This document shows positions 7,743 through 53,376 of a stretch of 64,000 nt of DNA, piece by piece. Source of the DNA: a virus; IMG/VR virus record IMGVR_UViG_3300034418_003613, positions 13,088-77,087 of that record, one strand, 5' to 3'. The position numbers were made by a program, and so were the translations under genes. The first letter of the stretch is position 1. Each line of letters begins with the position of its first letter. A model generated the notes under the pieces. That model was not told where the DNA came from. It ran no database searches and worked only from the letters and a program-made list of their open reading frames with translations.

Positions 7743-8300
7743 ATGAGTTGTAACTGTACCAAATGTAGTCCTAACAAGTGTAGCTGTAAAGACAGCGCAT
7801 TGACTAATCCATGTTCATATACAGAATGCCCTTCTACAGCTGAGAGATGTGATGAATCAGTATCTCCTGCTTGTGTGACTTGGACGGGTCCTGAGACTTT
7901 AGTTGAGGATGCTGAAGGAGACACCTTTGTTATTCAACCGGGTGAGAGATTAGAGCAGATCCTACAAAGGATGATGCTTGTACTAGCAGACGGTCTTGTT
8001 GCAGGCAACGCAAGCAATTCATTCCATGCTCCTTTGAACTTATATATTGGTACTATTACAAGTTCATCTATTGAGTTGTTGTGGTCTGGAGAGGCTACTG
8101 GAACTACCAGCTTGCAAGTTCAATATGATACCGCAGTTGGATCTTCTTGGACTACAGCAGCAACTTTGACTGCTGGTGTGTTTAAAGCAACTATTAGCAG
8201 TCTAGTTGCTGAAACAAAATACAAGTTTAGAATCATAGCTGATAATGGTGCTACACAACCTGAATCGGTTATTGTATTTGCTACAACGTTGACGGCGTAA
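7743..8300 (+). CDS. Cys-rich protein with C-terminal fibronectin type III domain
   Basis: 185 aa. FN3 pattern APLNL..ITSSSIELLW..ISSLVAETKYKFRIIA. N-terminal CVTWTGP module shared with the 4360 protein. Confidence 0.7.
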   Translation: MSCNCTKCSPNKCSCKDSALTNPCSYTECPSTAERCDESVSPACVTWTGPETLVEDAEGDTFVIQPGERLEQILQRMMLVLADGLVAGNASNSFHAPLNLYIGTITSSSIELLWSGEATGTTSLQVQYDTAVGSSWTTAATLTAGVFKATISSLVAETKYKFRIIADNGATQPESVIVFATTLTA

Positions 8301-27322: not shown

Positions 27323-27324
27323 AC

Positions 27325-29658: not shown

Positions 29659-29671
29659 AATTTAAAATATT

Positions 29672-35800: not shown

Positions 35801-38800
35801 AAATATTCAAAAGGAATAAGTCAGAGTACATTGAGAGGGTTAAGAAGTATGTAAATAAGAATGAGGCTAATACTCTATTAAATGAGTTAGTCAAACTTGG
35901 CGTATATCCAGATGCAGAACAAGCTACAGAGTTTTTAAAAACAGGTGATGTTAGATATCTATCAATCTTCTTTACTGAACAGGGTATGGTTGACCCTAAG
36001 TTTGACAGAGAGTTATACCAGCAGATTGTTGAGAAGCTTGATGTTTATAAGCAATCTACCGAAGTAGAGGAAGAGCAGACTGCAGAAGAGAAAGAAGTAT
36101 CCGCTGATACTAAGAAGTCTACAGACAAGATTGATGAAGTCTTAGATAATGCTGGAGTAGATGCACCAAGGAGTCAAACCTTTGGGTCTACCAAGAAAGT
36201 AAATCCTGTAGGTAAAACCTTACTACAAAAACTCTACTTAAAGTATAGAACCAATCAAGCTAACTTAGCTAAGAAAGCTAAGAACTGGAGCTCATGGTTA
36301 AATACTAAAGAAGCCCAGGTTGCAAACAGAGCTTATGAGGCTTTAAAGCAGATGTGGTATGCAGAGATTGAGGGTAAGTATAAGACCCAGAAAGCTTTGG
36401 ACGCTGCATATAAATCAGATAAAGGGTTTATTAAGTGGTTGGCTCTGCAAGAAACAAATCCCGATGTTATTGATATTCTTGAGGAGTCTGGTTTAGCTTT
36501 CTCAGATTTCTATAATACCTCTACATCAGAAGAAGTTGCAGATACAGTTGATGCTGAATCTTTTGACGGTGAGGTGGTTGAAGGTAATATCCCAGGTAGT
36601 AGTTATGTGATAGTAAAGTATAGTACTGTAGATGAGACTGGTAACCCTGTTACTTACTATCAGATAAAGACACGAGATAATAAAGATCTCTCTGATGAAA
36701 TTGTGAAAACAGCAGGCATCAGTCCTGGCGCAACGTTTCCTACATTAAATAAAGCTAGTAAGGCTAGAGCCAAGTTGGAAGAGGAGGCTCCTGCAGCAAC
36801 AACATTTGATTTTGATGGTGTTGAAGGGTTATACAGAGGAGCTACAGTTACAGACGAGAACGGTAAGGAGTATGTCATTACGTCTAGTGCTAAGAGTATT
36901 CAGAAGTATAAGAATCTTTCATTGATTCCTATAGATAAGGTTGATCTTAAAGGCAAGGAGAGAAAGGAGGCTACAATTATTGTGAAGCCTGGTAAGTTCA
37001 AGAACAACTACGAATTAGAGAAGATAGGTTTTGAAGCTCTTCCTAAGAATGTAAGTCGTTTAACTTTAGCTGAAGCTGTTAGAGCATATGGTCATCAGAA
37101 TCGTAGAGGTAAAGCTAATGAAGAGAGCAGAGAGGATGCAGGTAAAAGAATTGATGCTATTGTTGAAACTCTTACTCCTGAGGAATTAGGGCAACTTGAG
37201 TTGGTTATAACCCGCAATCCAAATGGTGGGGAAGTAATTCAAGATGAGTTTGCATATGAAGATCAAGAGGCAAACCCTCTGATTTCCAGAGTTGTAGAGT
37301 TATATACTATAGGTCTGCGTATCTCAGATCCAGACATACAGAAGAAAGTTAATAAAGCCCTAAAAGAAAAGGGTATAGAGAAGAGTGATTCTTCTGAAGG
37401 GTTCTTTGCTTACATGCCTAACTCTAATGTACAGATCCGAAACGCTGAAGGTAAAGTAATTGATCCTAGACAGATTGATGATCAGACTGCAAAGAATACT
37501 TTCTTTAGTACGTTGCCTGTGCCCAATGCATTGAGCATTATTAGAGACAACTTTACTATCCAGAAAAACCTTATTCGTTTTGTTGCTGAAAAATTAGGAG
37601 ATGCAGACTCTGTCACTATACCATACTCAGAGTTAGAACAGTCCGGTAATTTTTCTATAGTGCGTAATAATGGCAGTTTTGATTTAAACAGTGATCCCAA
37701 GTCATTAAAAGATCTGGCTTATCATACTGTAGACGGCAACATTATTATTCTTGATAATAGAAAGTTTGCCAGTAAAGAGGGTGAAGTAACGCGTAGGACA
37801 GATATTAAAACTAACATTGATGATGTAGATCAAGAACCTACAAATGAAAAGCTCAAAGAAATGCTTGGTGAGAGCCTTTACAATAAGGCTAGGAATATGG
37901 GAGCATACGTTGCTATCATCAAATCTCCTAATGGTCAGTATACCCTTGCTGAGTTGAAACCTACACAAGCTACTGAAGAGGAGGCTGTTGGTTTATTTGA
38001 AGAGCTTGTTAAACGAGCTGCTCAGACACGTCAAGAAAATTTGTCAGATCCGGAGGACATTACCTCTGATCGGAAGGATCTTTCCTACAATGTTGAGTGG
38101 AACAAAGATTTTAAGACTCGTTTATATATTAAGACTAAGCCTGGTTTTGATGTTCAGATTCAGGTTGATCCTTCTGGAAAGATTAGCCTTAATGTCTACG
38201 ACAAGAATAAGGAAGAGCCTGTTCTAAAGCATACTAAGAAAAGTAAAGGCAAGGAAGGCAAGCCCGCTCCTATTGTTTTCCACCATTCTGCAATTGAAAC
38301 TATTGTTGATAGTGGTGATTATGCTGCTGCACTAGACAATCTATTTGACACCTTCAACCAGCAGGAAGCGGCTAAGGCACTTGGTTTAAAACTTGAGAAG
38401 TCCAACATTAGTAAGAGTTTTGAGAAGCAAGCTGATGTTGATACCATTATTGAGAACACTACTACTACTCTTGATGATAGGGTTAGATTCAATTACAGAC
38501 TTACGCTACAACAGGATTCTGCAGATATAGAAGCAGGCAGAAATGTTCCTGATCAGGTTGATGAGTCTAACAAAGAAACTAAAGAAGAACAGAAAGATAA
38601 TGAGACTCTAGAGGAGAAGATAGAAAGAATGAGTCAAGAGAACGAAGCAGCTTCAAATGAAGCTGCTGAGACAGAAGATCCTGAAGTTCAAAATGAGTTA
38701 AGCATTAAAGAATTAAAAGCACTAAAAAAAGCAAGAAGGCTTGAGATAATTGAAGAGCAAAAGAACTTACCTAAAGATCAACGACAAAAGAATCTTAACA

Positions 38801-41800
38801 AGTATATTCAGAATGATCCTGAGATAAAAAGACTTACTAATCTAATTGCAAACAATTCTGCTAATAAGATTGTGTCACCAAATCTTTCTTTCTCAGACGT
38901 AGAGGACATCAATGTATTTAAGTCTTGGGCAGAGAATGCCTTGCCTGACTTTATTTCTATAGATGACATTACAACTCTAGGTGATAACCTCAAGGCCGGT
39001 GGTGTAAGAGTTGGCGCTTTTGTTTTGGATCTGCATGATATTGCCGGTAATACCACAGTTAAAGGAACAATCTACACTGGAGCCAGCAATCCATTTAGAT
39101 ATCATGAAGCATTCCACTCTGTCTTTAGACTTCTTCTTACAGATCAAGAGATAGATAAGTATCTGGGTATAGCGCGAAGAGAGGTGAGAGAAAAGCTTAG
39201 AAGGGAGGGTAAGAACTTTAAGACTGAGTTAGAAAAGTTTAGAAACTCTGCTGACACATATACTAATATGTCAGAGGCTAGATTGATTCAAGAATACTAT
39301 GAAGAATATTTAGCAGATCAGTTTGAGTTGTTTAAGACTAACCCTAGAGCTACTCAGACCAGTAGTGAGAATAAGTCTTTGTTTACTAGAATTCTTGAAT
39401 GGATTAGAGCTGTTCTTGGAAACTATACTAAGAACGAACTTACTGAGTTATTTGAGAACATTGACGCTGGAAAATATAAATCAGCATCTACTGTAATAAA
39501 CAGATTTACAGATGCTGCTATACAAGGTGTAACTATCCAGGCTAATGCCCTTCTTCCATATGATGAGATTAAGTCTGATGACGGCACCTCATACAAACTA
39601 TATATATCTGCTGAGGCAGCAAGTAGTTTAGTGCGTAGCATGTCGGCTATCTATATTCAACGAGAGGAGAATAATACAGATCCTAATAAGACTAGAGATA
39701 ATCTTCTAGACGAAGTAATAGAAGACTTTCAGAAGTTATATGACTGGCAGGATCCAATGAATGAAGATCTTGATCCTGATCAGATTGATTCAATGTTGAA
39801 CTATGAGTCTGTCTTTGTTGGCTATAGAGATGCTCTAAAAAGATCTTTGAAAAAATATCTTGCTCTGGTAGATATAAGCTTTGATGAGCAGATCTATGTT
39901 GCAGAGCAGAAGGAAGACAATGAAGGATTAAGAGGTGTTGATGATTGGGACAAGGATGCATCCTTGATTGGGGGCTTTAGTTCTTTATCTGCAAGCTTGC
40001 GTAGATTCATAATGAGTACAACTGTGGCAGAGAGTGATGTCTTTGGTCACACTGAGGTAAAGAAGGGTGAGAAACTTATTGTACCTGTAAACTTTAATGA
40101 AGCATATAATGGTTTATTAAAAGCTGTAAGAAGTACAACAGATCCTGGTGCGCTTTTACGTCAGATGTATTTGTTTGGTCAGAATAATCCACAGACCGAA
40201 GCTGTTGTTAATAGACTCTTTAGTGCAATTGGAGTTACTTATGAACAGATATTAACTGAAGAGAACTGGGAATCTGGTGTAAAGAGACCTTTGTTCTTTA
40301 ACTCTGTCATCAAAGGATTGGAGAATTTCCGTGTTGACTACTTATTTATCCATAGAGACTCTGGTAGTGGTAGGATCTATACCTATAGTGCTGCAAATAG
40401 AGATGATGCAAATACTCAGATAGACAGATGGGGTCAAGCTTATTCTAGATTATACCGTGATAAGCTTAGAGTAGATGGAGCGTTTAGGACAGAAGCTGTG
40501 AATTTCTTAGATAGATTCTATAGACAGCTTGGTAAAAATCCTAAAAGTATGACTGATCAGAAGCTTGATGAAGAAGTAAGAAAGCTTCAGACAGGTTTCA
40601 GAGAGTATTTAGGTATACAATTAAGCAGGCAATATCTTGAGCTTCACTTTATAAATAGACTACAGAATCTTACAGATAATCAGACTCTTAGGAAAAAGGA
40701 GTTTAAAGATGTTGTTACACTAGATCAAGAGGATGTAAGTAACATGAAGGCTGCTGTAGAGAATAATGAATATCTGTTCAGCACTTCTGATACAGGCATG
40801 CAAGGTGTCCTAAAAAGAATATCATTATCTAATGCTCCTTTTGATGAAACTGTAGGTGCTTCTGTATTTAAGAATGCTAATGGTGATTTAGTATTTGCTC
40901 ACCAGAAACCAACTCTTCATTTAAAAAAGGTAGCTGCATTAAATGGAGTGGATAAGCTGGAAGAGCTGAGAGAGAAAGAAGAAATAGAAGGTGTAAGATA
41001 TCTAGAGAATAACTATCTTTTGAATGATCCGGCTTTCAAAGAGATGTCTTTAGAAAGAAGACTAAAGGTCACTAGAGTATCAGGGTCTAAGGTAGGTAAG
41101 ATTGAAGCTGGCGAGGATGGTATTGAAGAACAGGGTAGGTCTGAAGGAAAAACCTATGGTGATTTTACAGCAAAGGAATTTGCTGCAGCTTTGGTTAATG
41201 CCTATACGAATACATTTAATGCAACAACAGGTAGGTTAGATGGTGAGATTACTATCATCAACGATGAAGGTAAGGAAGAAAAGGTGGCAGTTGCACCAGT
41301 TCTTATCCGAGTAATTGAAGCATCTAACACTGGTGATATGATGGAACTACCAGTTATCAAGGCTGTAGAACTTGCTAAGAATGGAAGAGTTGAGTTAACT
41401 GACAAGGCTATGCAAGCCTTTGTAGATAACATCAAGAATGAGTTTAAGAGGATTCAAACTGAGATCTCTCGTAATCCTGCAGATAAAAGAAATATTGAGG
41501 ATTACTACAAGACTGAAGAGGGTAAAGAAGTTGGTAGAAGTGTAACGTTTCATGAGAACGGCACATTGCTTCAGCCTGCTAAAGAGATTGATGTATATTC
41601 AAGATCTGCCACTTTTGTAACATCTGCTACTGCAATAGAAAGATTACGTGAAGGGACGCAGAAAGCCCTTCTTTACGCAGAAGACACTGCTAGAGATGTT
41701 ATCAAGTTTTTAGATACAGATGAGTCCAGACAAGCATTTATCCAAGAGTATAAAAACGAAAAGAATAGAATTGAAACCGTTGTTAATAACTTAGGAAAGG

Positions 41801-44800
41801 TAAAGGTTACCAAAGAGAATAGGGAGGCAATGATAGAATTGCTTGGAGATGCGATATCCAATGAAGAAACGGATCAGTATAAATATTCTTACACTCTTGG
41901 TACAGCAACATATTACTTAGAATCAAGAGACTTAGCAAGATTTTTAGAAGGTAGAAAATCTATGTATGTCTATGTTTTGAGTGATGAATCATTTGCTGGA
42001 ACTAAAGAGAGTGAGGCAGATCAAGCACTAGAGGAAGTTGGCTTGACTCCTAATAACCTCAGAGATTATAAGACTGAGATTGAAGAAGCTATCAGAGAGA
42101 ATCCTGAGTTGAGTTTTGAAGAGGTAATAGAGTCTCTAGGTGGTATGGAATCCTTTGAAGAATTCTTGAGGTATAGACTTGATATGGAGTTTAAGAACTT
42201 TAGGGACCGTGCTAAGTCTCTTATGCCTGAGAGTGAGTATAGTAAGTATATAACGTCAGGTCTTACAACAAAGGCTGGTGTTTCTAGTGGAGAGACTGCA
42301 TTATCCGCTAAGAGATTAAATCTTGTAGAAGGCAACCTTGAGCATAATTTGAAGCAGATCTTCTTTAATGATTTCATAAACACTAGAGCCATAAATCAAA
42401 TATTGCTTGGTGATCCTTCGATTAGTTTAAAGGACGCAGTAGATGCTGTAAAAAGAGCCAAGATGCAGAACGCGGCTTATGATAGTGCAGCTAGTATTAT
42501 CAGTGCTCCAGAATACGGCGTTGAACATCCTGTACAGCAGATGAATCTATTTGGTTTTACAGAACCTAAAGTAGCTGCTACGCACAACCCAGGAGACGTT
42601 ACTAAGAATGCAGATGCTCAGCTGTGGCTTACCTTAAAGTCCTTTAGGTATATGTGGTTTGGTCTTGGTAAGCTGAGTGCAACACAAGCTCAATTATTAG
42701 ATAGAATTGAAAAAGGTGAAGACATTCCGTATGAGGAGCTTTTAGGCAATGCAGATAAATCTAATGAGAGTTTTGCCAAAGTAAAGGCAATGCTAAACTC
42801 TAAGAAGTTTGTCTATGGTGATGGGAAAGTATTTGTAAAGATGTCTGCTTTTACCCTTACCAAGTCATTTACATCAAGACAGGATGAGAATGGAAACTGG
42901 GTACCCAGAGCAAACAAGCTTGCTCTTCACAACCTGAGAGTTAAGATGGAGCAGTTTGAAGAAGCTCAATGGGACAATGGTAACGGTGTAGGTACTATTG
43001 CAATGGCTGCACCTGTCTCAGCATTAAAAATGATGAAGGAGAATATTCAATCTATTGATTCAGTATTAGCTACCGACACTCCTTTTACAGCTGAACAATC
43101 CATGCAGCTTGATGCAAACTTTATGGGTCTTCAAACAGTGAACCCATCTAACAAACTTATAATTACTGACCCTAACCAGATTAAGACAATTGTTACTTCT
43201 GAGCAAAAGGATGATACTGAAGTTATTCTAAATGATGAACTTACTACTATTGGTAAGATTAGGAAGAAATATAATAAAGCTATTCGTGATAGGGTAAGCT
43301 TAAGATATGCTACTAAGAGAAATCTGATATTTGATTTTGACGTTGAGTATGCAATGGAGGCATTGGGTAGAAGTAAAAAGTCTGGTAAAATAGAACCAGA
43401 TCTTTATGTATACCTGCAGTATGCTAGATCTGCTCTTGAAGCATCTAACTCTACAAGTAATATTCTTGAGATGTTCTCTGTTGATAAGAACGGTCAACAG
43501 AAATATAATCTGAATAATCCTCAAACTGTTAAGAAGTTTGAGCAGCTGTTCTTGTCATTCTTCTCTAAAGGTGTATTTGCCGAGAAGACTACAGGTATGA
43601 GTGTTGCTTTAGTATCTGACTACGGCGCAAGAGTTTATAGACGAGTATTCTCTGTGGATGAGAATGGAATGCCAGATAAGCATGAGGTTATTAGAGAAAA
43701 TGTTTGGGAGCAAATGTCAGATAAACCTGATGTTGTTTTTAATATTGATGATGGAGAGAAAGCTCAAGATGATAAGAATCTTACAGGTCTTGCTGCAGCT
43801 ATCAAGAAGGCAGGCTCTAAGGGTGTGGTTATCATTGACCGTCTAAGATCCAACTTGAAAGAGTATGATTCTAAGGGTAAATACACGGGTCAAAGATATT
43901 CTGAAGGTATGCTACCTGCTCACTATACTGAAGTTGGAGACTTGATTGCAAACTCTGATAGACCAATTCCAGATGTTGTTGCTAAAATGTTTGGAGTACG
44001 TATCCCTTCACAGGATAATCACTCAACAATCAATATTAAACTTGTTGATTTCTTACCGGGATTCTATGGGTCTTCTGGTATTTTTAGTAGAGAACTTATT
44101 GAGATATCAGGAGCTGACTTTGATATTGATAAACTCTACATCCAGAGTAAGAACTTTTATGTAAAAGATGATGAGTTTATAGAGTATGGTAAGGCCAAGA
44201 CTAAGAATGGTCAGTATCAAGACTACATTACTGCTATGAATGCCAGCGTTAAAAAGCCTGGTTCAGACTTAACCCAAGCATTAGATAGGTTTAGGAGGTT
44301 TGGAGGTAAAAGACAATTTACTAAAGCTCAGCGTGATAAACTTTTAAAAGCAGGATTCACAGAGAATGCACTTAAAGCATTGAGCGCAACCGGATTACCT
44401 ATAACCTATGCGGAGTATCAAGATCATAAAGAAAACTATGGGGAACCTTATGAAGAGGCTATTGATAATGATGTATTAGACTACAAGTTTGCTCTTATGG
44501 GTAATGAGTATGTTACTAATACACCTGATGCTGAAGTTCCAATCTCATATGAGCCTGCAGACCTTAAACCTTTGACCGAGACATTAAAGAAATTGGCTGA
44601 AGAAGTACCTTACTTCAAGAATATCATAGACAATGAACAAATGGATGTCGATAACCTTCTTGGTAAGCTGTTAAGTTTTGCAGCTAACAAAGAAGGAGCT
44701 GCAAATATTGGATCAGTTGTACTGCCAAACTTGTATTTAAACTTGCTCCAAGAGTATGATGTCAAAATTAAACACATTAAGCAGGGTGGTCAGACAATTA

Positions 44801-47721
44801 CTGCAAACCTTAGGTTAAACGATCAAACCTTTAATGACTTTGGAGTTACCAAGGATGATATTGGTCAATATAGAACTCAGTATGTAATTTCTGCATTGAT
44901 TACAGCAATGACGGACAACGCCAAAGAACGTCTGGCAGCTAAGCTTGGTTTGAATAAAAACGCATTATCTGTAGTAGCTAACATGACAGCATTGGGTGTA
45001 CCTATTAAGACATCTATTCTTCTTGTTAACCATCCTATTATTAGAGCTCTCTATTTTCAGGCTATAAATAAAGAAAAAAAGACTTCTCCCGGAATTGCTA
45101 CATTAGTTTCAGACCGAATGAGCGATCTTATTAAGGCTTATCCAGAACTGGAAGAAAATATACCTCAAGTCAATGATGATCTTTTAATTCAAGAGATAGA
45201 TAAGAATAGATCTTTGATGACGGTAGAGACTCTCACGAAAGCAGTAAAAGAAGAAGAGGAGATTACAAAAAGTGACGTTGCTGAGGAATATGCTATTCTA
45301 AAACAGTTTCAAATAGCTCATAACATCAAAGAGTATACTAGTAATATTGGAGCGATTCTAAGTCTTACTAAAGGGTTAGGTCAAGATCTGACTAGTGTGG
45401 ATGAAACTCATCAACAAATTGAAAACTTAGGTTTATATCTTGATTCCAAAGATTATGCTATTTATGAAGAGACTAGAATTAAAAGCCAGCTTCCTGCTAT
45501 AGATGTAAGACCTCTTATGAAAGACACATGGCAAGGAAGGTTTTTAGAAATCTTTAATGAGATTAACGATACTGTTTTGCCTGCGGTCATGCTTACTCGG
45601 ACACCAATCTTTAAACAGGTATACTTTAATCTACTCCGTAATATTGATAACTATAAAGCGGCAAGAGATACTAGATTTAAAGACAAGTTAAGGGTAGACC
45701 TTTTAGCGTATCTAACTATCAAGGGGTACGAGCATAACATGATGGAGGAAGATTCAAAGCATGCTGGATCTTTAAATAATAGTATGATATACCCACAGCT
45801 AGAGGGGGAGAAAATTACAAACGTAGTTGAAAAGTTAAGAAAGGAGTATCCTGGAAACTTCTTCTTAGAGAGTTTTGTAATTCTAAACCGAGCACGTCAG
45901 GAGGGTAATAAGATAGGTATTGATGCAGCTGAGGCTAATACATTTAACAGAATGAGTGATTCTGATAAGATGGAGCTACAGACATCCTTTGCCATAATCT
46001 ATGGTGATCCTGAAACAAGACCTGAGGCAATGAAGCTTATTCATTACATGATGGTCAAAGATGGATTGTCATACAGAAGCGGAAGCTTACTAGATGCTAT
46101 TACACCATTTACATATGAGAAGTTTTTGAATCAGATCAATACTGTTCAGAAAGCTGTAGGTAAAGATAGTACTGCTGAATTGTTTAGCGGAACTTTTGGT
46201 ATGTCTCTGGATGAGTTGACTAGAGAATTCATACAAGGTTACATGGGTCACGTTAGTACAAAAGATAATCTTGCTACTATTAGAAGTGGTGTAAAAATCT
46301 ATAATCCTTTCCAAGGTAAAGTGGAAGTACAATCTAAGATTTATACCCCTCATCAACTTGAACGTAATGAGAATACTCTGTACATCTTTGGTGATAATGC
46401 TGCTCAGAATGGTCTCGAAGGAAATAAAATAGCTAGGCAATATGGTAATAGCTTTGGCATTCCTTATAAGAAGCTTCTCTCAGATGCAGAGGGCACCTAC
46501 TATACAGATGAAGACATTGACGATTACACTGTAATGTTGGAAGAGACATTCGATGTCTTAGAGCGTTTAATGAATCAGTATGATACTACAGTTTTCCCAC
46601 AATATATCATACCTAAAAGTGAGCTCAAGAATATTGAGAAGAATAGCCCTAAAGTTTTTAAAGAACTAAAGGCTGCATTAAAGGTAAGATTTGGTTATGA
46701 TCTTCTTGGGAGTAAGAGCAAGCCTAAGCCGGCACAAAAAGCTAAGGGTTATGTCTATATAGATAAGAGTACAGACACATCTAGATTGATTATGAGTGTG
46801 AAACCTGGTATGCAACCTTTAGTGACAGATCAAAGGTTTGCTAGACGCCGCGTTTCAATAACAGGTTCTGATCAAAAACAGAGAATGAAGAATGAAGCCA
46901 AGATAGATGAAGCATTTTCTGGACTAAATGGTTTTGGAACTAGAAATGTTAAGTTAAAACTGAAGGATAAGGATTCTTACTTTAAAGAGTTTGTAGTAAA
47001 AGAGATAATAAGAGTTAATATAGGTAGTAAAGATGCACCAAAATATGTATATTTTAGATTAGCAAAGTTTCAAAGTGCTGTAGAGCCTACACCTAATATG
47101 TTACCTAGTGCTAACTATGCTGAGTATGTTGAGTTTGATCCAGAATTTTCTAGAGGTCAATGGGCTGGTGGTTTTATGTTTGGTGAAAGCGTATCTAACA
47201 AAGACATACAGAAGTATATTAAGGAAAACAATGATGGGCTGGGTACTATTCTTGATGAGGATATAGATGCTGCTTTAGATAACATTGACTTTGATGGAGA
47301 TCCTAGCCAGAATGCTGCTAGTAAGAATGCTGCTGATGGAATTAAAAGCGGTCTTCCTGTAGATTATGACGGTAAGAATGTTAATGTTGGTGGTAAACCT
47401 GCTGATCAAGTATCAGACAAAGATGTAGATGCGGCTGCTGATCAGGCTGCTGACCCAGAGAGAGACCCGACACCTGAAGAAATAGACGCAGGTAATGCTG
47501 CTCTTGCCAGTTTACTAGGTAATCTTGGACCATCAGATGAAACTACCTATCCTGAGTTAACAAGCTTCTGGGATGAAAACATTCAGCAGGATAAGGATGC
47601 CTTAGATAAGTTATCTAATCAAGGAATTAATAACTTAGAAGATTTTATAGATAAGTTTAAGAATGGCATTTATGCAAATGAGGAGGCTTATATAGATCAA
47701 ATTAAAAAGTGTATAATTTAA
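32899..47721 (+). CDS. Giant virion-packaged RNA polymerase polyprotein (crAss-type) with zincin metallopeptidase domain
   Basis: 4940 aa. Catalytic RIPSQ...SGADFDIDKLY (DFDID at 44116-44130, as in the phi14:2 gp66-type RNAP) and 'TDNAKE'. HEAFH..EEYLAD zincin at 39103. Confidence 0.9.
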   Translation: MDLPNEPNVEQDSKVPGAIDIPPSVPTDNFVFQPSDSWLDTPMTQEFTATLDPDYVAQIEHYKPIIDRYAPGSLANFNTPFPGQSVNQYNPVSQQTAPDISTAEGALRDLQMTLDQGMSVDAMGTVKQRKIQDPIFASRKASQFDRYYEHPKFAELGFHPYANNEQFYNTNSDIFDDMSRMSGQFGQLVGSGFISTYRSIGDLFDQDESYFTQPDLQTADEFEEAMAIGMSTREGVGAFANNLLLNSGYTVGIIGSIALEELVLAGLTAVTGGAGSAALAAGTARNVGRLGQVVANSFKLPRLAKATRQMLQTLNQTDNARDFWKATKSGEWGIMGTLFAPETMAAVKSLKTGKNAAQNLTNLAKAQNVFGGFYRDLRAVNLAFAESKLEGGMVYNQQIQNGLAIQEAKGDLSPEALDRVREGADRAAFGTIMMNAPLIYFSNRLVLDNALGGFNKSLGRLMNDKITGVGRKIIQTTKTIGKDGKIARDVFDIAEDGLKGYLKRMKAAGVKGSLRLGAGASLRYFAANVAEGIQEIGQEAIGFGTKQYYSNLINDPMYGGAEMVGTAISSAVDSQFSEQGVETFLSGFLMGGVVQGPQKLLFQGMPNLYTRVATPEKYKEYKENKKKFYDSLKETHNKAWNAMAEDPNAVFDPNKLNFLVQKEVAAEMKRSAYADDQFGFMDAKDFGKFQQMFTIMQNGTSDLFRKQLQDYLNLTDEELVQAFPVSKNEVKSGKLRERIQDMITQIDKTEEAYNKNKDKFENPFDPQKFDKDSREYRDEQLKQIAYEHARYLYMFTEDGFNRALERADTIYNELASDPILSKIAANDITVLLDQDTLAKEVETLMLEIATLEDTGENKKLKEQKLERLTKLQALYGILSDPENLTSKGVFDRRKINKVTKAFEAYVQYLADTKDGFVDRKRIQEVLKKIVDYKALKGRARVYDKAIQYLSNPKNLDDIVARQYEINKQIFKRNKSEYIERVKKYVNKNEANTLLNELVKLGVYPDAEQATEFLKTGDVRYLSIFFTEQGMVDPKFDRELYQQIVEKLDVYKQSTEVEEEQTAEEKEVSADTKKSTDKIDEVLDNAGVDAPRSQTFGSTKKVNPVGKTLLQKLYLKYRTNQANLAKKAKNWSSWLNTKEAQVANRAYEALKQMWYAEIEGKYKTQKALDAAYKSDKGFIKWLALQETNPDVIDILEESGLAFSDFYNTSTSEEVADTVDAESFDGEVVEGNIPGSSYVIVKYSTVDETGNPVTYYQIKTRDNKDLSDEIVKTAGISPGATFPTLNKASKARAKLEEEAPAATTFDFDGVEGLYRGATVTDENGKEYVITSSAKSIQKYKNLSLIPIDKVDLKGKERKEATIIVKPGKFKNNYELEKIGFEALPKNVSRLTLAEAVRAYGHQNRRGKANEESREDAGKRIDAIVETLTPEELGQLELVITRNPNGGEVIQDEFAYEDQEANPLISRVVELYTIGLRISDPDIQKKVNKALKEKGIEKSDSSEGFFAYMPNSNVQIRNAEGKVIDPRQIDDQTAKNTFFSTLPVPNALSIIRDNFTIQKNLIRFVAEKLGDADSVTIPYSELEQSGNFSIVRNNGSFDLNSDPKSLKDLAYHTVDGNIIILDNRKFASKEGEVTRRTDIKTNIDDVDQEPTNEKLKEMLGESLYNKARNMGAYVAIIKSPNGQYTLAELKPTQATEEEAVGLFEELVKRAAQTRQENLSDPEDITSDRKDLSYNVEWNKDFKTRLYIKTKPGFDVQIQVDPSGKISLNVYDKNKEEPVLKHTKKSKGKEGKPAPIVFHHSAIETIVDSGDYAAALDNLFDTFNQQEAAKALGLKLEKSNISKSFEKQADVDTIIENTTTTLDDRVRFNYRLTLQQDSADIEAGRNVPDQVDESNKETKEEQKDNETLEEKIERMSQENEAASNEAAETEDPEVQNELSIKELKALKKARRLEIIEEQKNLPKDQRQKNLNKYIQNDPEIKRLTNLIANNSANKIVSPNLSFSDVEDINVFKSWAENALPDFISIDDITTLGDNLKAGGVRVGAFVLDLHDIAGNTTVKGTIYTGASNPFRYHEAFHSVFRLLLTDQEIDKYLGIARREVREKLRREGKNFKTELEKFRNSADTYTNMSEARLIQEYYEEYLADQFELFKTNPRATQTSSENKSLFTRILEWIRAVLGNYTKNELTELFENIDAGKYKSASTVINRFTDAAIQGVTIQANALLPYDEIKSDDGTSYKLYISAEAASSLVRSMSAIYIQREENNTDPNKTRDNLLDEVIEDFQKLYDWQDPMNEDLDPDQIDSMLNYESVFVGYRDALKRSLKKYLALVDISFDEQIYVAEQKEDNEGLRGVDDWDKDASLIGGFSSLSASLRRFIMSTTVAESDVFGHTEVKKGEKLIVPVNFNEAYNGLLKAVRSTTDPGALLRQMYLFGQNNPQTEAVVNRLFSAIGVTYEQILTEENWESGVKRPLFFNSVIKGLENFRVDYLFIHRDSGSGRIYTYSAANRDDANTQIDRWGQAYSRLYRDKLRVDGAFRTEAVNFLDRFYRQLGKNPKSMTDQKLDEEVRKLQTGFREYLGIQLSRQYLELHFINRLQNLTDNQTLRKKEFKDVVTLDQEDVSNMKAAVENNEYLFSTSDTGMQGVLKRISLSNAPFDETVGASVFKNANGDLVFAHQKPTLHLKKVAALNGVDKLEELREKEEIEGVRYLENNYLLNDPAFKEMSLERRLKVTRVSGSKVGKIEAGEDGIEEQGRSEGKTYGDFTAKEFAAALVNAYTNTFNATTGRLDGEITIINDEGKEEKVAVAPVLIRVIEASNTGDMMELPVIKAVELAKNGRVELTDKAMQAFVDNIKNEFKRIQTEISRNPADKRNIEDYYKTEEGKEVGRSVTFHENGTLLQPAKEIDVYSRSATFVTSATAIERLREGTQKALLYAEDTARDVIKFLDTDESRQAFIQEYKNEKNRIETVVNNLGKVKVTKENREAMIELLGDAISNEETDQYKYSYTLGTATYYLESRDLARFLEGRKSMYVYVLSDESFAGTKESEADQALEEVGLTPNNLRDYKTEIEEAIRENPELSFEEVIESLGGMESFEEFLRYRLDMEFKNFRDRAKSLMPESEYSKYITSGLTTKAGVSSGETALSAKRLNLVEGNLEHNLKQIFFNDFINTRAINQILLGDPSISLKDAVDAVKRAKMQNAAYDSAASIISAPEYGVEHPVQQMNLFGFTEPKVAATHNPGDVTKNADAQLWLTLKSFRYMWFGLGKLSATQAQLLDRIEKGEDIPYEELLGNADKSNESFAKVKAMLNSKKFVYGDGKVFVKMSAFTLTKSFTSRQDENGNWVPRANKLALHNLRVKMEQFEEAQWDNGNGVGTIAMAAPVSALKMMKENIQSIDSVLATDTPFTAEQSMQLDANFMGLQTVNPSNKLIITDPNQIKTIVTSEQKDDTEVILNDELTTIGKIRKKYNKAIRDRVSLRYATKRNLIFDFDVEYAMEALGRSKKSGKIEPDLYVYLQYARSALEASNSTSNILEMFSVDKNGQQKYNLNNPQTVKKFEQLFLSFFSKGVFAEKTTGMSVALVSDYGARVYRRVFSVDENGMPDKHEVIRENVWEQMSDKPDVVFNIDDGEKAQDDKNLTGLAAAIKKAGSKGVVIIDRLRSNLKEYDSKGKYTGQRYSEGMLPAHYTEVGDLIANSDRPIPDVVAKMFGVRIPSQDNHSTINIKLVDFLPGFYGSSGIFSRELIEISGADFDIDKLYIQSKNFYVKDDEFIEYGKAKTKNGQYQDYITAMNASVKKPGSDLTQALDRFRRFGGKRQFTKAQRDKLLKAGFTENALKALSATGLPITYAEYQDHKENYGEPYEEAIDNDVLDYKFALMGNEYVTNTPDAEVPISYEPADLKPLTETLKKLAEEVPYFKNIIDNEQMDVDNLLGKLLSFAANKEGAANIGSVVLPNLYLNLLQEYDVKIKHIKQGGQTITANLRLNDQTFNDFGVTKDDIGQYRTQYVISALITAMTDNAKERLAAKLGLNKNALSVVANMTALGVPIKTSILLVNHPIIRALYFQAINKEKKTSPGIATLVSDRMSDLIKAYPELEENIPQVNDDLLIQEIDKNRSLMTVETLTKAVKEEEEITKSDVAEEYAILKQFQIAHNIKEYTSNIGAILSLTKGLGQDLTSVDETHQQIENLGLYLDSKDYAIYEETRIKSQLPAIDVRPLMKDTWQGRFLEIFNEINDTVLPAVMLTRTPIFKQVYFNLLRNIDNYKAARDTRFKDKLRVDLLAYLTIKGYEHNMMEEDSKHAGSLNNSMIYPQLEGEKITNVVEKLRKEYPGNFFLESFVILNRARQEGNKIGIDAAEANTFNRMSDSDKMELQTSFAIIYGDPETRPEAMKLIHYMMVKDGLSYRSGSLLDAITPFTYEKFLNQINTVQKAVGKDSTAELFSGTFGMSLDELTREFIQGYMGHVSTKDNLATIRSGVKIYNPFQGKVEVQSKIYTPHQLERNENTLYIFGDNAAQNGLEGNKIARQYGNSFGIPYKKLLSDAEGTYYTDEDIDDYTVMLEETFDVLERLMNQYDTTVFPQYIIPKSELKNIEKNSPKVFKELKAALKVRFGYDLLGSKSKPKPAQKAKGYVYIDKSTDTSRLIMSVKPGMQPLVTDQRFARRRVSITGSDQKQRMKNEAKIDEAFSGLNGFGTRNVKLKLKDKDSYFKEFVVKEIIRVNIGSKDAPKYVYFRLAKFQSAVEPTPNMLPSANYAEYVEFDPEFSRGQWAGGFMFGESVSNKDIQKYIKENNDGLGTILDEDIDAALDNIDFDGDPSQNAASKNAADGIKSGLPVDYDGKNVNVGGKPADQVSDKDVDAAADQAADPERDPTPEEIDAGNAALASLLGNLGPSDETTYPELTSFWDENIQQDKDALDKLSNQGINNLEDFIDKFKNGIYANEEAYIDQIKKCII

Positions 47722-47724
47722 GTT

Positions 47725-50700
47725 ATGGCTAGATGTCCAAATAGAAATACCCCGGAGTATAAAGCGTTGATGGGAGTATTTAAAACTAACCTGGCGACAG
47801 ATAATGTTATCAATGCCTGGCAAGATTTGAATAAGAGTGAGGCTTTTCCTACAGTAGAGGAGGCTAATGAGTTTATGAGCCGAAACAAAACTCTATATGC
47901 GTTAAAGCAAAGAGAGTTTGGTGAGGCTCTATTAGGTAATCTTAGCAGGCTTAGGTATATCAGCCGGTACAAGGACAAGTACTATGTCAATAACTCTGCT
48001 ATCTCCACCTGGGATAATGAAACTTGGGAGTTCAACCAGAAAGAGTTGGAGAAGAATCTTACTCTTATTAAAAGATACCTGCGTGTAAATAATATTCCAG
48101 AGGCTGCTGTAGAGATCAGAAAGACAAAAAGGAGTTATGAGATCTCAGTCAAGGATAATATGTTCTCACCTAGAGATATCATAGAGATAGAAAAGCAGAG
48201 AACATCTCCACGTTCTCATGCACTTCTTGAGCATCTAACAAAAATCACCCCTGGTTTGAACATTGCTGTAATGACAGTTGGTGAGGCAAGAGCTTTCTAT
48301 GAGTCATTACCAGAGGAGCAGAAAGCTAATGTACCTTTTGATAAGGTCAAGTCTTTCTTTGTGAAGGATCAGGTTATCCTTATTAAGGGAAGAACTAGTA
48401 ATGAAACAGCAATAGAAGAAATACTTCATCCATTTGTTGACGGACTACTAATTGATAACCCTGAGCTATTTGACTCTTTATTAAAAGAAGCCAAGACAAA
48501 CTTTCCTGTACTCTGGCAAACTATTCAAGATTCATATTCTGATCGTAGAGGGTTTACGCTGCAGCACAGAAACTTAGAATTAGTTACACAAGCACTTTCC
48601 AGGCACTTCAATAAAGAATTTGAGACCACTCCAACCAAGTCTTTTAAAGAGAAGATCAAAGAATTCTTAGAATGGTTTGCTAGCATAATCAAAGACTTCA
48701 ACAAGTATCTTACTGGTGTAGACTTAGTTATCAAGCCTAGTATGATCAAACCCAATGCAACTTTAACTGATATAGCTAAGCTGATAAATACATCAGATAT
48801 TACTCTTCAGGTTGATAGGGTTGCTGATTCTAAAGTCCGCTATAGTCTCTCTCCTGAAATGCAGTCAACTCTTGATTATGCATTAAGACAAAGCAATGAG
48901 TTACAACAGGCTGTAATAAAACGCATGTTTAATGCTGCTATGCTAGCTGAGACGGAGTTTGATAGTCTTACAGTTAGTGATGCTAATCCTTCAGAGACTA
49001 GCAGTCTTGTAGCTTTTCATGAGGCTGATCATTCCTATATGGATATAGTAAATGGTGAGCCTTATCTCTCTACTACTACAGCAATCAAAGGTAAGATGGA
49101 CCCGGAGAAAGAAGCTGAGGTCCAACTTAATCTAGATATAGGGAATGAGTTTGACATGATGCTTACTGCTATTGCATCAGATAAACTATTTGAAGATATC
49201 AAAGATCAGATCAAACTTCTTGATCCAGTCAAAGCAGAAGCTGCATATTCAACCTTGCATGCAATGTATAGGGCTGTTACACCTGAAGGAGCTGTGGCTA
49301 TTCCTCAGGTTGTCTTGCATGATAGAGAAAGTAAGATTGCCGGACTTGCAGATCTTATAGTTATTACTAAAGAAGGTAAGATCAGAATTGTTGATCTAAA
49401 GACCAGCAAAAACTTTGTTAGAAATAATGAGAGTTATGATGGTACAAAATGGGACTTACCATCAACATCACTGTTAAAGAGAAAAGGTTTTGACAAACTC
49501 TCAACTAAGCAGCAACATAACTTACAAGTGGCTATCTATAGAAGGATGGCTCAGAACATGGGTTATGAGGTTGACCAAAGTGAGTTTGCTTTAACTACAA
49601 TCCACATCAAAGTTGATATAGAAGGTAAAGGAAAAGACCAAAAGTTCTTGGGAACATTCCAGGTAGATGATCTAGTACCTCATGCACCAAGTCAGAATCT
49701 AAATATGGTGAACGCTCTTGTTCCCTTATTTGTAGATCCCGAGGTTAAGGAAGAGCTAGATGAAGAAGCTTTACTTTCTGATGATACACCAATTGATGAG
49801 AAGACCTTCTTAGATGAGGACGAAGCTAAGATGGATATGCTTGATTCAGCTGGTCTAACTGAGTATGCTGTAATTGGTGGTGCACTGGAAGCCTACAAGG
49901 GTGCTCTTATTAAGAAGCAAAAGGCTCTTGAAATGATCCGCAGTAACATCTTTATGGACAGAAGTAAAGATGAGACTAGAGAATATATCTTCAACTCAAT
50001 TGCTGCTATTTCTTTAGCCCGATCACAAGACGGGAAGGTGCAGAGTGCCTTATTTACACAGCTCTTGAAAGACGGTCTACGTGAGGTTAGAAAGTTTGTC
50101 CAGTTTATTGAAGACCCACAAAACTTTGGTAAGCCCGAGTATATCAGCTATGCTCTGAACTTTGATAGATTTATTGAGACATATAGAGGTCTGTATAGTT
50201 TACAAGATACCGGGGATCTTAACGCTACCCAAAGAAGTTTGATTCTAAACTTTCAGATAGAGCTGAATAAACTTAAGGGTGATAAACAAACTGAAGGCAT
50301 CATTGATGAAGCTATTACCAACTATAGTAGAGAGATAGTTAAGAGTACCTCAAGTAAAGAGTTTACTGAGGCAGAGCTTGATGACCTCTTTACTATGGTT
50401 CAAGATATAAGCTACCTTGAGTATCAGACCGGAGATCTTGCTACATCCAAGGATACAATCTTGGCTGTGATGGACAAGATATACAAGGCTAAGAAACAAG
50501 AGCTTCTAGATAAATTAGAAACCAGAGACGCTTTAATACGTCAGAAGGCTGCCCGTTTACAACGCTTATCTCCAAATACAGATCCTCAGGAACTATATAA
50601 GTTCATGATTGAATTTGATGAGGATGGAGTTCCAACAGGAAGTTATGTCCAAAGACTTGGTAAGAACTACTATGGTAAGTTACAAGAGTTAAGAGAAAAG

Positions 50701-53376
50701 CTTTTTGATGAGAATGGTCAATGGAAAGAGTATAGGGATGTAACAGATCTAGACACCGCATCAGATGCAGATATTGCTTTCAATAAGGAATTATCAGAAG
50801 CTAGAGAAGAGTATGGTAACTTCTGGAGAGCTGAGACAAAAGGTTTAGAGGGTAAACCTATATCGGGAAACTACCACTACTACGATAAGAAGTTTACAGA
50901 TGAAAGAAAGAAGTATGAGTACTACGTAGCTGCAGGAAAACACGGATACTGGAAGAAAAAATCATCTGTCACTAAGAAAGAGTACGCAAAGTTTGTTGCA
51001 AAGTATTATGATGAAGTTGAATACAGCAAGGCTATAAAAGATGAGTTTGGTCAGTACACAGGTCAGATTGTACCTGGTATGACTATATACTCACCTAAGA
51101 AAAAGTTTAGACTAGTAAAGGATACAGGTAGAGATGGGGTAAATCTTCTCAGTGATAAGTATAAGTCTATTATGGAGAATACTGACACAGAGCTAGGTAG
51201 AGCCCAGAAAGATTTCTATGAAACATTTGTAAGACTTTATGAGAAAGAATTACTAGAGAAACTTCCAATGGGTCAGCGTGATCAGATGCTTGGAAGGATT
51301 CCTTTGGTTAGAGCTAGGATGTATCAGAATCTAAAGGAGAAGCCAAATCTTGTTACAAGGCTATGGACTAAGATGAGTCGCTCAGTTAGAAATCTAGTAA
51401 CAGAAACAGCTCAGCAAAAAGTAGTTATTACAGATGAAGAAGGCAACCTAGTAGACTCATTACCAATCTTTTATACTGGTAAGGCTAGAGTGGAGGGTGA
51501 ACTAGAAGAAGTCATGGCTGAGATTGATGCCTTGAATCAAGAGAGGAAGGATGGCAAGATTAATATAAATGAATATAAGCAAAAGAAGAAAGTCTTAAAT
51601 GGCAGAAGATCAACTTTAGAAAATCAACCAACGTTAGGTGAGTTAAACTTAGATCTAGGCACTGCTCTGATAAAGTTTAATGCTATGGCTGAGCATTATG
51701 AAACCATGGCTGAGGCAGAAGATACATTAAAAGCTTTAGTGAAGAGCCTTGAGGCTAGAACATATCAACCACCAGGGAGCAAGGAACTTTATACGAAAGT
51801 TAAAGGCAAGCTTGTTAAGGTGGGTGATAACACTAAAGAGTCTAACATAGTGAAGCGGGCTAAGAAGTTTATGAACATGGTCTACTATGACAATGAAGAA
51901 ATTACAAGAGGCTTCTTTGACAAGGTTGCGGATGGATTAATTAGCTACTCCTCACTATCTTATGTGGCATTTAACCCATTTGGTAACTTTAATAACTATG
52001 TGCTGGGTAGGCTTAATAATAATATTGAGGCTCTTGGTGGTAGATTCTTTGATAAGAAAGCATATGCTCGAGCAGTATTTGAGTTTAATAAAAGAGCACT
52101 TCCAGATCTTATTAAGAGAACATCTAGCCCTGATGTAGTAAGAAAGCTTGGTGATATAGCCACACTTAATCAACTAAATCTATCTGCTGGGTCAGCATAT
52201 GATCCAAGAAAGCCCTTTAGCAAGTATGAGGCTTTTGTAGATTTATTTAGAATGATGGACTCTAGCTCTGATCTACGTGAATCAGGAAGACGAGCAGATA
52301 AAGCGCAAGACTCTTGGTATGATAAGGCTTCTGAGTTTGGGTACCTTCTGCAGGATGCCGCAGAATATAATGTTCAGACTAAGGTTGGTATGGCTATGCT
52401 TATGGATACGCAGATGCTTAATCCAGATACAGGTGAAACTTTATCCCTCTATGATGCCATGCAGTTTGATGGTGAGACCCAAACTTTGAAACTTAAAGAT
52501 GGATTTACCCAGGTAATTAAGAAGAATGGTCAAACTGTAGAATACAATGATCAGTTTAGATACCAATTGAGAAATGAAATACGAGAGGTAAACAAACAGA
52601 TTCATGGTAACTATGCTAGAGAAGATAGAATGGTTCTTCAGTCTCATGCTGTTGGTAGATTGGCTGCACAGTTCCACAAGTGGGTAGCGCCTGCAATCAA
52701 AGCAAGATTCCGTCCTGAATACTATGATGAGAACTTAGGATATATGGAGGGTAGATATCTGTCTTTCTTGAAGTTCACAAAGCATGCATTCGGCGAGATA
52801 GTAAAAGGAAATATGGAGTTCTCTAAGTATGGTAAAACATTCATGGAGGACTATGGATATAAAGAGGATGGTTCACAGTCTGATCAGTATGCAACTAACA
52901 AACTCTTAAATACATATAGAGTTCTTGGTGAGATTGCTATCATATTCTCTACGATTGCAGTAAGTAACATTTTACAGATGATGTTCTCTGATGATGATGA
53001 TGATTCAGATTTTGAGAAGAGAATGGAGAACTTCTTAATGTACCAGGCGGATAGAACATATAAGGAACTTATCCTCATGGTTCCTATTTCACCAGATAGC
53101 TGGACTCAGATGTATCAAATGTTTAAGTCACCAATTGCTGCTACAAGAACTCTTGGAGAATTTGGAGAAGCTATATCATTAACAATGCGTACCCCGGTTG
53201 CAATGTTATACTATGATGATAGAGAGTTTTATGGAAACTCAAGCTATGTATACCAGAGAGGAACTAGGGCTGGCGAACTTAAAGTACGGAAGGCTTGGGG
53301 TGATGCTCTACCAATTATCTATGCTATTCAGAAGTATGCAAATCTGATTCAAGAGCGAGATTTCTTTATTAAGTAA
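47725..53376 (+). CDS. Large virion cargo protein with degenerate zincin-like and PD-(D/E)xK nuclease-like domains
   Basis: 1883 aa. EEILH..ELVTQ, then IAGLADLIV..IVDLKT..LQVAIY (RecB-type), then C-terminal 'IHGNY..AQFHKW..EGRY'. Confidence 0.75.
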   Translation: MARCPNRNTPEYKALMGVFKTNLATDNVINAWQDLNKSEAFPTVEEANEFMSRNKTLYALKQREFGEALLGNLSRLRYISRYKDKYYVNNSAISTWDNETWEFNQKELEKNLTLIKRYLRVNNIPEAAVEIRKTKRSYEISVKDNMFSPRDIIEIEKQRTSPRSHALLEHLTKITPGLNIAVMTVGEARAFYESLPEEQKANVPFDKVKSFFVKDQVILIKGRTSNETAIEEILHPFVDGLLIDNPELFDSLLKEAKTNFPVLWQTIQDSYSDRRGFTLQHRNLELVTQALSRHFNKEFETTPTKSFKEKIKEFLEWFASIIKDFNKYLTGVDLVIKPSMIKPNATLTDIAKLINTSDITLQVDRVADSKVRYSLSPEMQSTLDYALRQSNELQQAVIKRMFNAAMLAETEFDSLTVSDANPSETSSLVAFHEADHSYMDIVNGEPYLSTTTAIKGKMDPEKEAEVQLNLDIGNEFDMMLTAIASDKLFEDIKDQIKLLDPVKAEAAYSTLHAMYRAVTPEGAVAIPQVVLHDRESKIAGLADLIVITKEGKIRIVDLKTSKNFVRNNESYDGTKWDLPSTSLLKRKGFDKLSTKQQHNLQVAIYRRMAQNMGYEVDQSEFALTTIHIKVDIEGKGKDQKFLGTFQVDDLVPHAPSQNLNMVNALVPLFVDPEVKEELDEEALLSDDTPIDEKTFLDEDEAKMDMLDSAGLTEYAVIGGALEAYKGALIKKQKALEMIRSNIFMDRSKDETREYIFNSIAAISLARSQDGKVQSALFTQLLKDGLREVRKFVQFIEDPQNFGKPEYISYALNFDRFIETYRGLYSLQDTGDLNATQRSLILNFQIELNKLKGDKQTEGIIDEAITNYSREIVKSTSSKEFTEAELDDLFTMVQDISYLEYQTGDLATSKDTILAVMDKIYKAKKQELLDKLETRDALIRQKAARLQRLSPNTDPQELYKFMIEFDEDGVPTGSYVQRLGKNYYGKLQELREKLFDENGQWKEYRDVTDLDTASDADIAFNKELSEAREEYGNFWRAETKGLEGKPISGNYHYYDKKFTDERKKYEYYVAAGKHGYWKKKSSVTKKEYAKFVAKYYDEVEYSKAIKDEFGQYTGQIVPGMTIYSPKKKFRLVKDTGRDGVNLLSDKYKSIMENTDTELGRAQKDFYETFVRLYEKELLEKLPMGQRDQMLGRIPLVRARMYQNLKEKPNLVTRLWTKMSRSVRNLVTETAQQKVVITDEEGNLVDSLPIFYTGKARVEGELEEVMAEIDALNQERKDGKININEYKQKKKVLNGRRSTLENQPTLGELNLDLGTALIKFNAMAEHYETMAEAEDTLKALVKSLEARTYQPPGSKELYTKVKGKLVKVGDNTKESNIVKRAKKFMNMVYYDNEEITRGFFDKVADGLISYSSLSYVAFNPFGNFNNYVLGRLNNNIEALGGRFFDKKAYARAVFEFNKRALPDLIKRTSSPDVVRKLGDIATLNQLNLSAGSAYDPRKPFSKYEAFVDLFRMMDSSSDLRESGRRADKAQDSWYDKASEFGYLLQDAAEYNVQTKVGMAMLMDTQMLNPDTGETLSLYDAMQFDGETQTLKLKDGFTQVIKKNGQTVEYNDQFRYQLRNEIREVNKQIHGNYAREDRMVLQSHAVGRLAAQFHKWVAPAIKARFRPEYYDENLGYMEGRYLSFLKFTKHAFGEIVKGNMEFSKYGKTFMEDYGYKEDGSQSDQYATNKLLNTYRVLGEIAIIFSTIAVSNILQMMFSDDDDDSDFEKRMENFLMYQADRTYKELILMVPISPDSWTQMYQMFKSPIAATRTLGEFGEAISLTMRTPVAMLYYDDREFYGNSSYVYQRGTRAGELKVRKAWGDALPIIYAIQKYANLIQERDFFIK

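Follow-up and report, generated by a model that had tools for sequence, protein, structure and literature searches.

In cyanophage A4, cryo-electron microscopy showed the C-terminal helix of the ejection protein gp27 inserted into gp26, with a disulfide between gp27 Cys1715 and gp26 Cys5; the bond was treated as a local stabiliser, and a rule across phages is absent from that paper (PMC12002296). In the A-4L genome these are the only cysteines (Cys) of gp27 (1717 amino acids, aa) and of gp26 (1114 aa), gp29 has none and gp28 has one CxxC. The ejection proteins of N4-like phages are Cys-suppressed, which has been explained by their transit of the disulfide-forming periplasm (PMC11445570). Among crassviruses, particles of crAss001 have disulfides in the tail hub, in ring proteins and in gp57, their gp45, gp46, gp47, gp49 and gp50 are unresolved cargo needing partial unfolding, and ejection order was held to rest on cargo-cargo interactions not visible there (PMC10172136). 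That atlas is silent on cargo Cys (PMC10172136), the preprint on the RNA polymerase (RNAP) of phi14:2, a phage whose gp66 structure is published, mentions neither cysteine nor disulfide, and nothing on crassvirus cargo cysteines was found in the literature searched. What is already known is one such disulfide structure (A4) and Cys suppression in N4-like phages; a terminal Cys feature is not described for crassviruses or for a virion RNAP in that literature. The subject here is such a feature in a 64,000-nucleotide stretch of DNA (the window) that is part of the 77-kb IMG/VR virus record IMGVR_UViG_3300034418_003613 (66% complete), where the sole Cys of a 4940-aa giant, near its C-terminus, faces the sole Cys of the adjacent 1883-aa protein, near its N-terminus.

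Two cysteines in the cargo block

Five consecutive cargo proteins of the window, 9,537 aa together, have 2 Cys in all by open reading frame (ORF) listing and script count. The features concerned are these:

24725..32890, + strand: three Cys-free cargo ORFs, of 865 aa (24725-27322), 777 aa (27325-29658) and 1072 aa (29672-32890), each with 0 Cys, sited between a LysM/SLT protein and the giant
32899..47721, + strand: the 4940-aa giant, a fusion of module A (gp47/gp67-like, zincin) and module B (gp50/gp66-like virion RNAP) by hhalign and motifs; 1 Cys, residue 4938 (..IKKCII, then stop)
47710..47712, + strand: TGT codon of Cys4938, the giant's sole Cys, third residue from the C-terminus (ORF count)
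47725..53376, + strand: the 1883-aa cargo protein, module C (crAss001 gp49 / phi14:2 gp65 homologue by tblastn and phmmer); 1 Cys, residue 4 (MARCPN)
47734..47736, + strand: TGT codon of Cys4, the sole Cys of the 1883-aa protein (ORF count)

The junction of the two genes reads ..CAAATTAAAAAGTGTATAATTTAA GTT ATGGCTAGATGTCCAAAT... The counts in the initial annotation of this DNA (none in each of the three smaller proteins, one in each of the two larger, TGT at 47710 and 47734) are exact by the ORF script. The Cys-poor block extends further than had been noted there, as the preceding protein has just one close pair:

20393..24682, + strand: 1429-aa LysM and SLT lytic-transglycosylase protein, first of the Cys-poor block; no Cys other than C129 and C134

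In frame, TGY codons number 4 among the 10,966 codons of the cargo block, where about 139 are expected from position-specific base composition; off frame they stand at 1.7% and 6.2%, equal to ordinary window genes. Since it is restricted to the coding frame, the depletion acts on protein and not on base composition. The frequency of Cys in the cargo is 0.04% as against 2.2% in the remaining + strand ORFs of the window (about 1-5% in most of its other proteins of at least 150 aa), and at the 2.2% rate 9,537 aa would contain two or fewer Cys with a probability of about 1e-85. If each protein is granted one Cys, both would fall within 5 residues of the facing ends by chance with a probability of about 3e-6. 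Cys is absent from the N-terminus of A and from the C-terminus of C, as it is from the smaller cargo proteins, so that in this block the residue is at the facing ends only. That such placement is very unlikely by chance, as had been asserted from the window, is borne out by both figures and by the conservation in 74 loci set out below. Elsewhere in the window, two small ORFs are notably Cys-rich and contrast sharply with the cargo block (7743-8300, 9 Cys in the first 44 residues; 3315-3866, 10 Cys in 183 aa), and a 2124-aa structural-neighbour protein at 14022-20396 has 32 Cys.

Judged from its genes, the window comes from a marine crAss-like podophage and holds its block of ejected (cargo) proteins. 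The cargo genes lie downstream of tail/muzzle genes with the smaller cargo genes first (ORF order in the window and in five related records, G001-G005), PHROG virion structural matches lie upstream of the block, and the presence of the module proteins in virions has been shown by mass spectrometry for phi14:2 and crAss001. By hhalign, residues 432-964 and 2060-2263 of the giant match module A (probability 96.7% and 83%) and residues 3185-4117 match module B (99.1%); profile-profile alignment was required, as phmmer of A and B against the giant gave no match. Pfam DUF7831 is at residues 4479-4591. Two motifs go with the alignments, the second being the catalytic DFDxD described for crAss-like virion RNAP (bioRxiv 10.1101/2020.03.07.982082), and a third is in module C:

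39103..39117, + strand: HEAFH zincin-type motif, giant residues 2069-2073 (A part), kept in 6 of 6 full-length orthologues
44116..44130, + strand: DFDID, giant residues 3740-3744 within SGADFDID (B part), RNAP catalytic DFDxD, kept in 6 of 6 full-length orthologues
49351..49401, + strand: D543...D557-x-K559, PD-(D/E)XK-type nuclease motif of module C, in invariant columns of the module C alignment A1

From the profile alignments and the HEAFH and SGADFDID motifs the giant is read as an A+B fusion, and with the catalytic motif and the module B alignment its earlier label of RNAP holds. Module C is annotated "RNA-polymerase subunit" in cultured crassviruses; tblastn of the 1883-aa protein matches 74 Crassvirales records, and phmmer against C of cr112_1, cr85_1 and cr128_1 gives E 1e-24 to 1e-25. 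Pfam PF12705 is precomputed on several module C homologues, and phrog_2506, an exonuclease, matches residues 529-620 weakly. Three homologues (P0031, P0047 and P0066; 2161-2325 aa) have an extra Pfam PF18760 domain, are 250-450 residues longer and still carry a single N-terminal Cys. The C-terminal part of the giant had no match among cultured phages by megablast or tblastn, and sequence and profile searches of the PDB with the giant, module C and alignments A2 and A3 gave no meaningful match, those with A2 and A3 yielding no phage protein.

The likeness to A4 is one of arrangement. In both phages consecutive ejection proteins have a single Cys third from the upstream C-terminus and a single Cys at residue 5 (A4) or 4 (window) downstream, the facing proteins are otherwise Cys-free, and neighbouring ejection proteins have no Cys or a single close pair (CxxC in A4). 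However, A4 is a small phage of T7-like size without a virion RNAP, its two proteins form an ordered pentameric ring on the portal, and up to three or four proteins bear the signature in crassviruses; when A-4L gp26 and gp27 were compared by hhalign with the alignments of C and of the giant, the probability was at most 1.1%, with no homology detectable. The proteins gp67-gp66-gp65 of phi14:2 and gp47-gp50-gp49 of crAss001 are true homologues, with the DFDxD and zincin motifs and the terminal Cys; they are virion cargo, as the window's proteins are predicted to be, and they differ in that A and B are one 4940-aa polypeptide in the window phage and in that its C is longer, 1883 aa against 1349-1421 aa. 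The giant virion RNAP and companions of the Schitoviridae (N4 gp50-52, DEV gp71-73) are similarly almost without Cys, but the N4-like proteins are reported as fully Cys-free (PMC11445570), whereas the block in the window retains two invariant, facing, terminal Cys.

Terminal cysteines in relatives and at protein breaks

A scan driven by the alignment of C homologues found 80 IMG/VR loci, 74 of which have a readable junction and make up 54 distinct junctions; related junctions share 36-65% identity. (The C homologue alignment was needed, as a scan with a single C-terminal fragment of the giant retrieved nothing.) In 74/74 loci a Cys lies 2-5 residues before the end of the upstream ORF, and the downstream protein has one at residue 3-6, again in 74/74. 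Other Cys are nearly absent from these approximately 343,000 residues: of the 76 in the upstream ORFs (200,867 residues), 74 are those 2-5 residues from the end, and the downstream proteins (142,277 residues) contain 74, each of them at residue 3-6. The co-conservation of both terminal Cys, which the initial annotation had named as a check on its proposal, is therefore found throughout. Short motifs surround the two residues, [KR]-C-x-x ending the giant and M-A-x-C-x-N opening module C. In the last 400 residues of the giant, where mean column identity is 19%, the C-terminal Cys is one of just five near-invariant positions, and alignments A1 and A3 show Cys4 of module C as an invariant column. 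Five records contain a full-length giant (4616-5244 aa), each with a single Cys; a second one in the giant of G003, at residue 6 of an ORF call started at TTG, precedes the first Met (residue 14).

Among the matches listed for module C (40-99% identity), 120/120 have Cys at residue 3-5 and 115/120 have no further Cys in about 1,900 residues. An exhaustive profile search gave about 90 full-length, very divergent homologues (the count excludes two N-terminally truncated fragments, P0164 and P0228), all of which start M-x(1-5)-C except P0236, considered below. Seven of the distant homologues (P0205, P0221, P0248, P0255, P0260, P0121 and P0122) have both the N-terminal Cys, at residue 3-6, and a Cys that is last or second-last, which suggests that C would there be a middle link ahead of a further chained protein. 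Two other sequences have Cys of a different kind: in P0053, Cys 1252/1253 come just ahead of a premature end in what looks like a frameshifted or truncated call, and the second Cys of P0106 is an artefact of assembly, lying in a C-terminus (..CLLYTSPSPRD) that is translated from Nextera adapter.

Orthologues of the 865-, 777- and 1072-aa ORFs have either 0 Cys or close CxxC/CxxxxC clusters alone, and all other Cys in the cargo of close relatives are in such close pairs or clusters. In G001-G004 (loci L082-L093) they are at 438/443 and 1035/1040, at 111/114/130/133, and at 955-1001 with eight Cys. Their spacing suggests metal knuckles or local disulfides not hindering threading; long loops cannot form from close pairs.

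A comparison across Crassvirales, in which A, B and C occur as separate or fused proteins, is new evidence on the function of the pair:

phi14:2, A, B and C separate: gp67 (1797 aa), sole Cys the last residue; gp66 (2180 aa), 2 Cys, residues 3 and 2179; gp65 (1421 aa), 1 Cys, residue 3
cr112_1, cr85_1, cr128_1, cr126_1 and bajarodcaudo virus, A, B and C separate: A ends ..RCS, ..KCIAF, ..ACLAI or ..KCVAF; B starts MSC, MNNC, MSKRC or MSKTC and ends in Cys or ..ICGAxxxx; C has Cys 4-5 (for cr126_1 the stretch fetched held B and C, with A left out)
Suoliviridae cr118_1 and cr4_1, A+B fused and C separate: ..HCKGE or ..NCKGK, then MICPN
Intestiviridae p-crAssphage, Rudgehvirus, cr107_1, cr271_1 and cr110_1, A separate and B+C fused: A with penultimate Cys; B+C starts MSC or MAC

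The fused B+C of the Intestiviridae has no Cys near its internal B-C junction, and in the window's clade the internal A-B junction of the giant is likewise without Cys. That the pair should vanish on gene fusion, another check put forward with the original proposal, is thus what is seen, and the fusion of A with B leaves the window with one Cys pair instead of two. Counted from the annotated start, the first Cys of B+C comes at residue 17 in cr110_1, and those of C come at residues 16 and 23 in bajarodcaudo virus; both annotated starts probably lie upstream of the true ones. A search for fused giant+C forms among proteins of up to 5000 residues gave only two proteins, of different architecture, which themselves have N-terminal Cys4 and a Cys at or beside the C-terminus.

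Genomes of the crAss001-like phages encode A on one strand and B and C on the other. Pairing of the Cys is for that reason not a feature of the gene junction at the nucleotide level, in DNA or in RNA, and translational coupling or another nucleotide-level cause is ruled out. Bajarodcaudo virus 1 (PQ006092) offers a break of another sort. A group I intron with an endonuclease ORF (L100:13862-14755) splits its B exactly inside the catalytic motif, between DFD and VD; in an alignment with the intact B of cr85_1 one exon runs seamlessly into the next, and the intron is matched by Rfam RF00028 at E 1.5e-10 and 3.7e-6, both slightly below the gathering score. There is no Cys at this break, which serves as a negative control, the break being at the DNA level and the protein intact. 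In cr4_1 (L106, NC_055893; 563-21245) the annotated cargo genes have 7, 38 and 18 in-frame stops under table 11, from which it follows that in the late genes of this member of the Suoliviridae a stop codon is translated as an amino acid.

A probable disulfide between the giants and its alternatives

On these comparative grounds a selected, paired, end-to-end function of the two terminal Cys is well supported. The most likely, and simplest, chemistry for the terminal pair is a disulfide: each partner has a single thiol, conserved co-ligands are lacking, A4 provides a structural precedent with the same signature, and crassvirus particles have disulfides. A head-to-tail intermolecular disulfide between Cys4938 and Cys4 in the virion is accordingly the reading that we favour, and we think it probable. 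Structure models bear on the two ends:

47551..47718, + strand: C-terminal mini-domain of the giant, about 55 residues in four short helices, after a low-confidence linker (AlphaFold2)

In the AlphaFold2 model of the giant's last 400 aa the predicted local distance difference test score (pLDDT) is 92-95 over the mini-domain of 55 residues that closes the chain and drops below 50 over much of positions 242-341, and Cys4938 sits at the end of the last helix of the mini-domain. The first 400 aa of module C were modelled with a pLDDT of 77.6, residues 1-9 being coil. Prediction of a complex between the last 300 aa of the giant and the first 400 of C, from 31-row alignments and without controls, scored 0.29 against a mark of 0.32, which weighs neither for nor against binding. 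Foldseek/VIA-align of the module C N-terminal model (window 47725-48924) gave weak zincin-like similarity, with Z up to 6.3, and A4 gp26 was not among the matches listed in these fold searches. The similarity concerns residues ~154-353, which weakly resemble zincin-like folds (anthrax lethal factor N-domain, PPEP; Z 5-6.3); the invariant H170, E231, E232 and H235 of module C may be a degenerate metal site. A HEADH motif at residue 432 has only H436 invariant.

The proposed sequence of events starts from the tail. Cargo proteins would exit the capsid partly unfolded through the narrow tail channel, crossing the oxidising periplasm, and Cys would have been purged from them because of this threading and of the oxidising compartment, as in N4-like phages. 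The two remaining Cys would be held by selection through pairing with each other. The giant's small helical end domain would dock on the N-terminal region of C and, outside the reducing cytoplasm, Cys4938 and Cys4 would form an intermolecular disulfide, giving an unbranched thread of ~6,800 residues that could still fit the channel. The linked product would be linear and threadable because both Cys are terminal, an internal disulfide making a loop or a branch; by the same logic every other Cys would be purged or confined to short local clusters. The link would hold the two giants together in the virion, probably also during ejection, until thiol reductants of the host cytoplasm cleave it and free the RNAP module from C. 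In gut crassviruses small thioredoxin-family proteins, which may or may not have to do with reducing a cargo disulfide, are encoded a few kb from the RNAP module:

L101 22944-24211, L099 7263-7508, L100 8384-8629 and L102 22639-22914: thioredoxin-family proteins

No convincing thioredoxin/glutaredoxin CxxC motif was found in the 77-kb record, itself 66% complete. As first put, the disulfide was to link the giants for ordered packaging as well as ejection. An intermolecular disulfide joining them fares well on the paired function (74 loci, the split/fusion test and the A4 signature); a part in packaging is hardly possible, as assembly happens in the reducing cytoplasm, and for the same reason the bond would form after release. 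Its purpose would then be to hold the train through the periplasm up to reduction in the cytoplasm, and for a role in ejection order our confidence is lower than for the link itself.

Several points weigh against the disulfide. In crassviruses the bond is a predicted one, and the cargo is unresolved in the crAss001 maps. The A4 precedent is an analogy, as there is no sequence homology to gp27 or gp26. The homologue P0236 (2437 aa, metagenomic) is the only full-length one without any Cys; some 465 residues at its start stand in place of the usual 65, and searches of viral and of metagenome contigs did not turn up its locus. The C-terminal Cys varies in position, lying 1 to 9 residues from the end. 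Internal Cys are tolerated in gut lineages (B has 1-5, fused B+C as many as 15), so that the rule of no other Cys is strict in marine clades alone. Finally, assembly of particles in a reducing cytoplasm and the anoxic habitat of the gut bear on when, and whether, the bond forms.

The pattern of paired, facing Cys that are lost on fusion would be produced equally by a metal clasp, in which the two terminal Cys act jointly as ligands of a bridging Zn or Cu ion, and other cargo Cys of relatives do resemble metal knuckles (for instance CxxC...CxxC at 111/114/130/133). Two thiolates alone are a poor site, however, the consensus and the list of junctions have no conserved His, Asp or extra Cys beside either terminus, and the identical signature was modelled as a disulfide in A4; we consider a clasp very unlikely. 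Bonding of each terminal Cys elsewhere, either in tail-to-tail or head-to-head dimers of the same protein or to Cys-rich portal, ring or muzzle proteins that would anchor the cargo, draws on the many disulfides that stitch the crAss001 tail and on the Cys-rich structural neighbours in the window, with the 32 Cys of the 2124-aa protein. It fails to explain why Cys is restricted to the facing ends of A, B and C, why a new pair comes exactly at each protein break, and why the outer ends and other cargo proteins are free of Cys, and homodimers would be hairpin-like doubled chains, harder to thread; these other partners are improbable.

A role that links nothing, such as a redox switch holding the RNAP or nuclease inactive up to arrival in the cytoplasm, a processing nucleophile or a recognition tag for packaging, would suit the report that phi14:2 gp66 needs activation, the view that fused polyproteins are cleaved, and the setting of the Cys within short conserved motifs. 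But one thiol per protein cannot make an intramolecular switch, separate genes require no cleavage, and such a Cys would be neither lost on fusion nor limited to facing ends, which makes this kind of role unlikely as well. CaaX-like or lipobox modification is ruled out by the varying offsets and the lack of a signal peptide, and split inteins by Cys too near the ends. There is lastly the thought that the two Cys are chance leftovers, tolerated at the floppy termini of proteins otherwise purged of the residue; termini do often tolerate substitution, and the placement probability of ~3e-6 stems from one case. The Cys are invariant, though, over 54 distinct junctions and in four family-level lineages, amid a surrounding 400 residues that are 19% identical. 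By these conservation data the chance reading is in effect refuted, and we give it almost no credence.

Delivery of crassvirus cargo

Crassviruses are the most abundant phages of the human gut, and the question touched by the probable disulfide between the giants is how megadalton amounts of protein, an RNA polymerase included, are delivered through their narrow tail. Tentatively, and with more doubt than belief, the case may be extended to all Crassvirales and, by convergence, to other podophages: terminal Cys would couple giant proteins into an unbranched, redox-cleavable thread of 5,000-7,000 residues that is ejected as a train, reduction in the cytoplasm then releasing and activating the virion RNAP. 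On such a coupler, fission and fusion of the RNAP module would be neutral, since each new break in the protein would bring a Cys pair with it. If this is true, a conserved covalent coupler at protein ends would be a concrete mechanism of delivery and would explain the free splitting and fusing of the RNAP module in evolution, and the placement of the two Cys would be a simple sequence signature for spotting chains of ejected proteins in uncultured phages.

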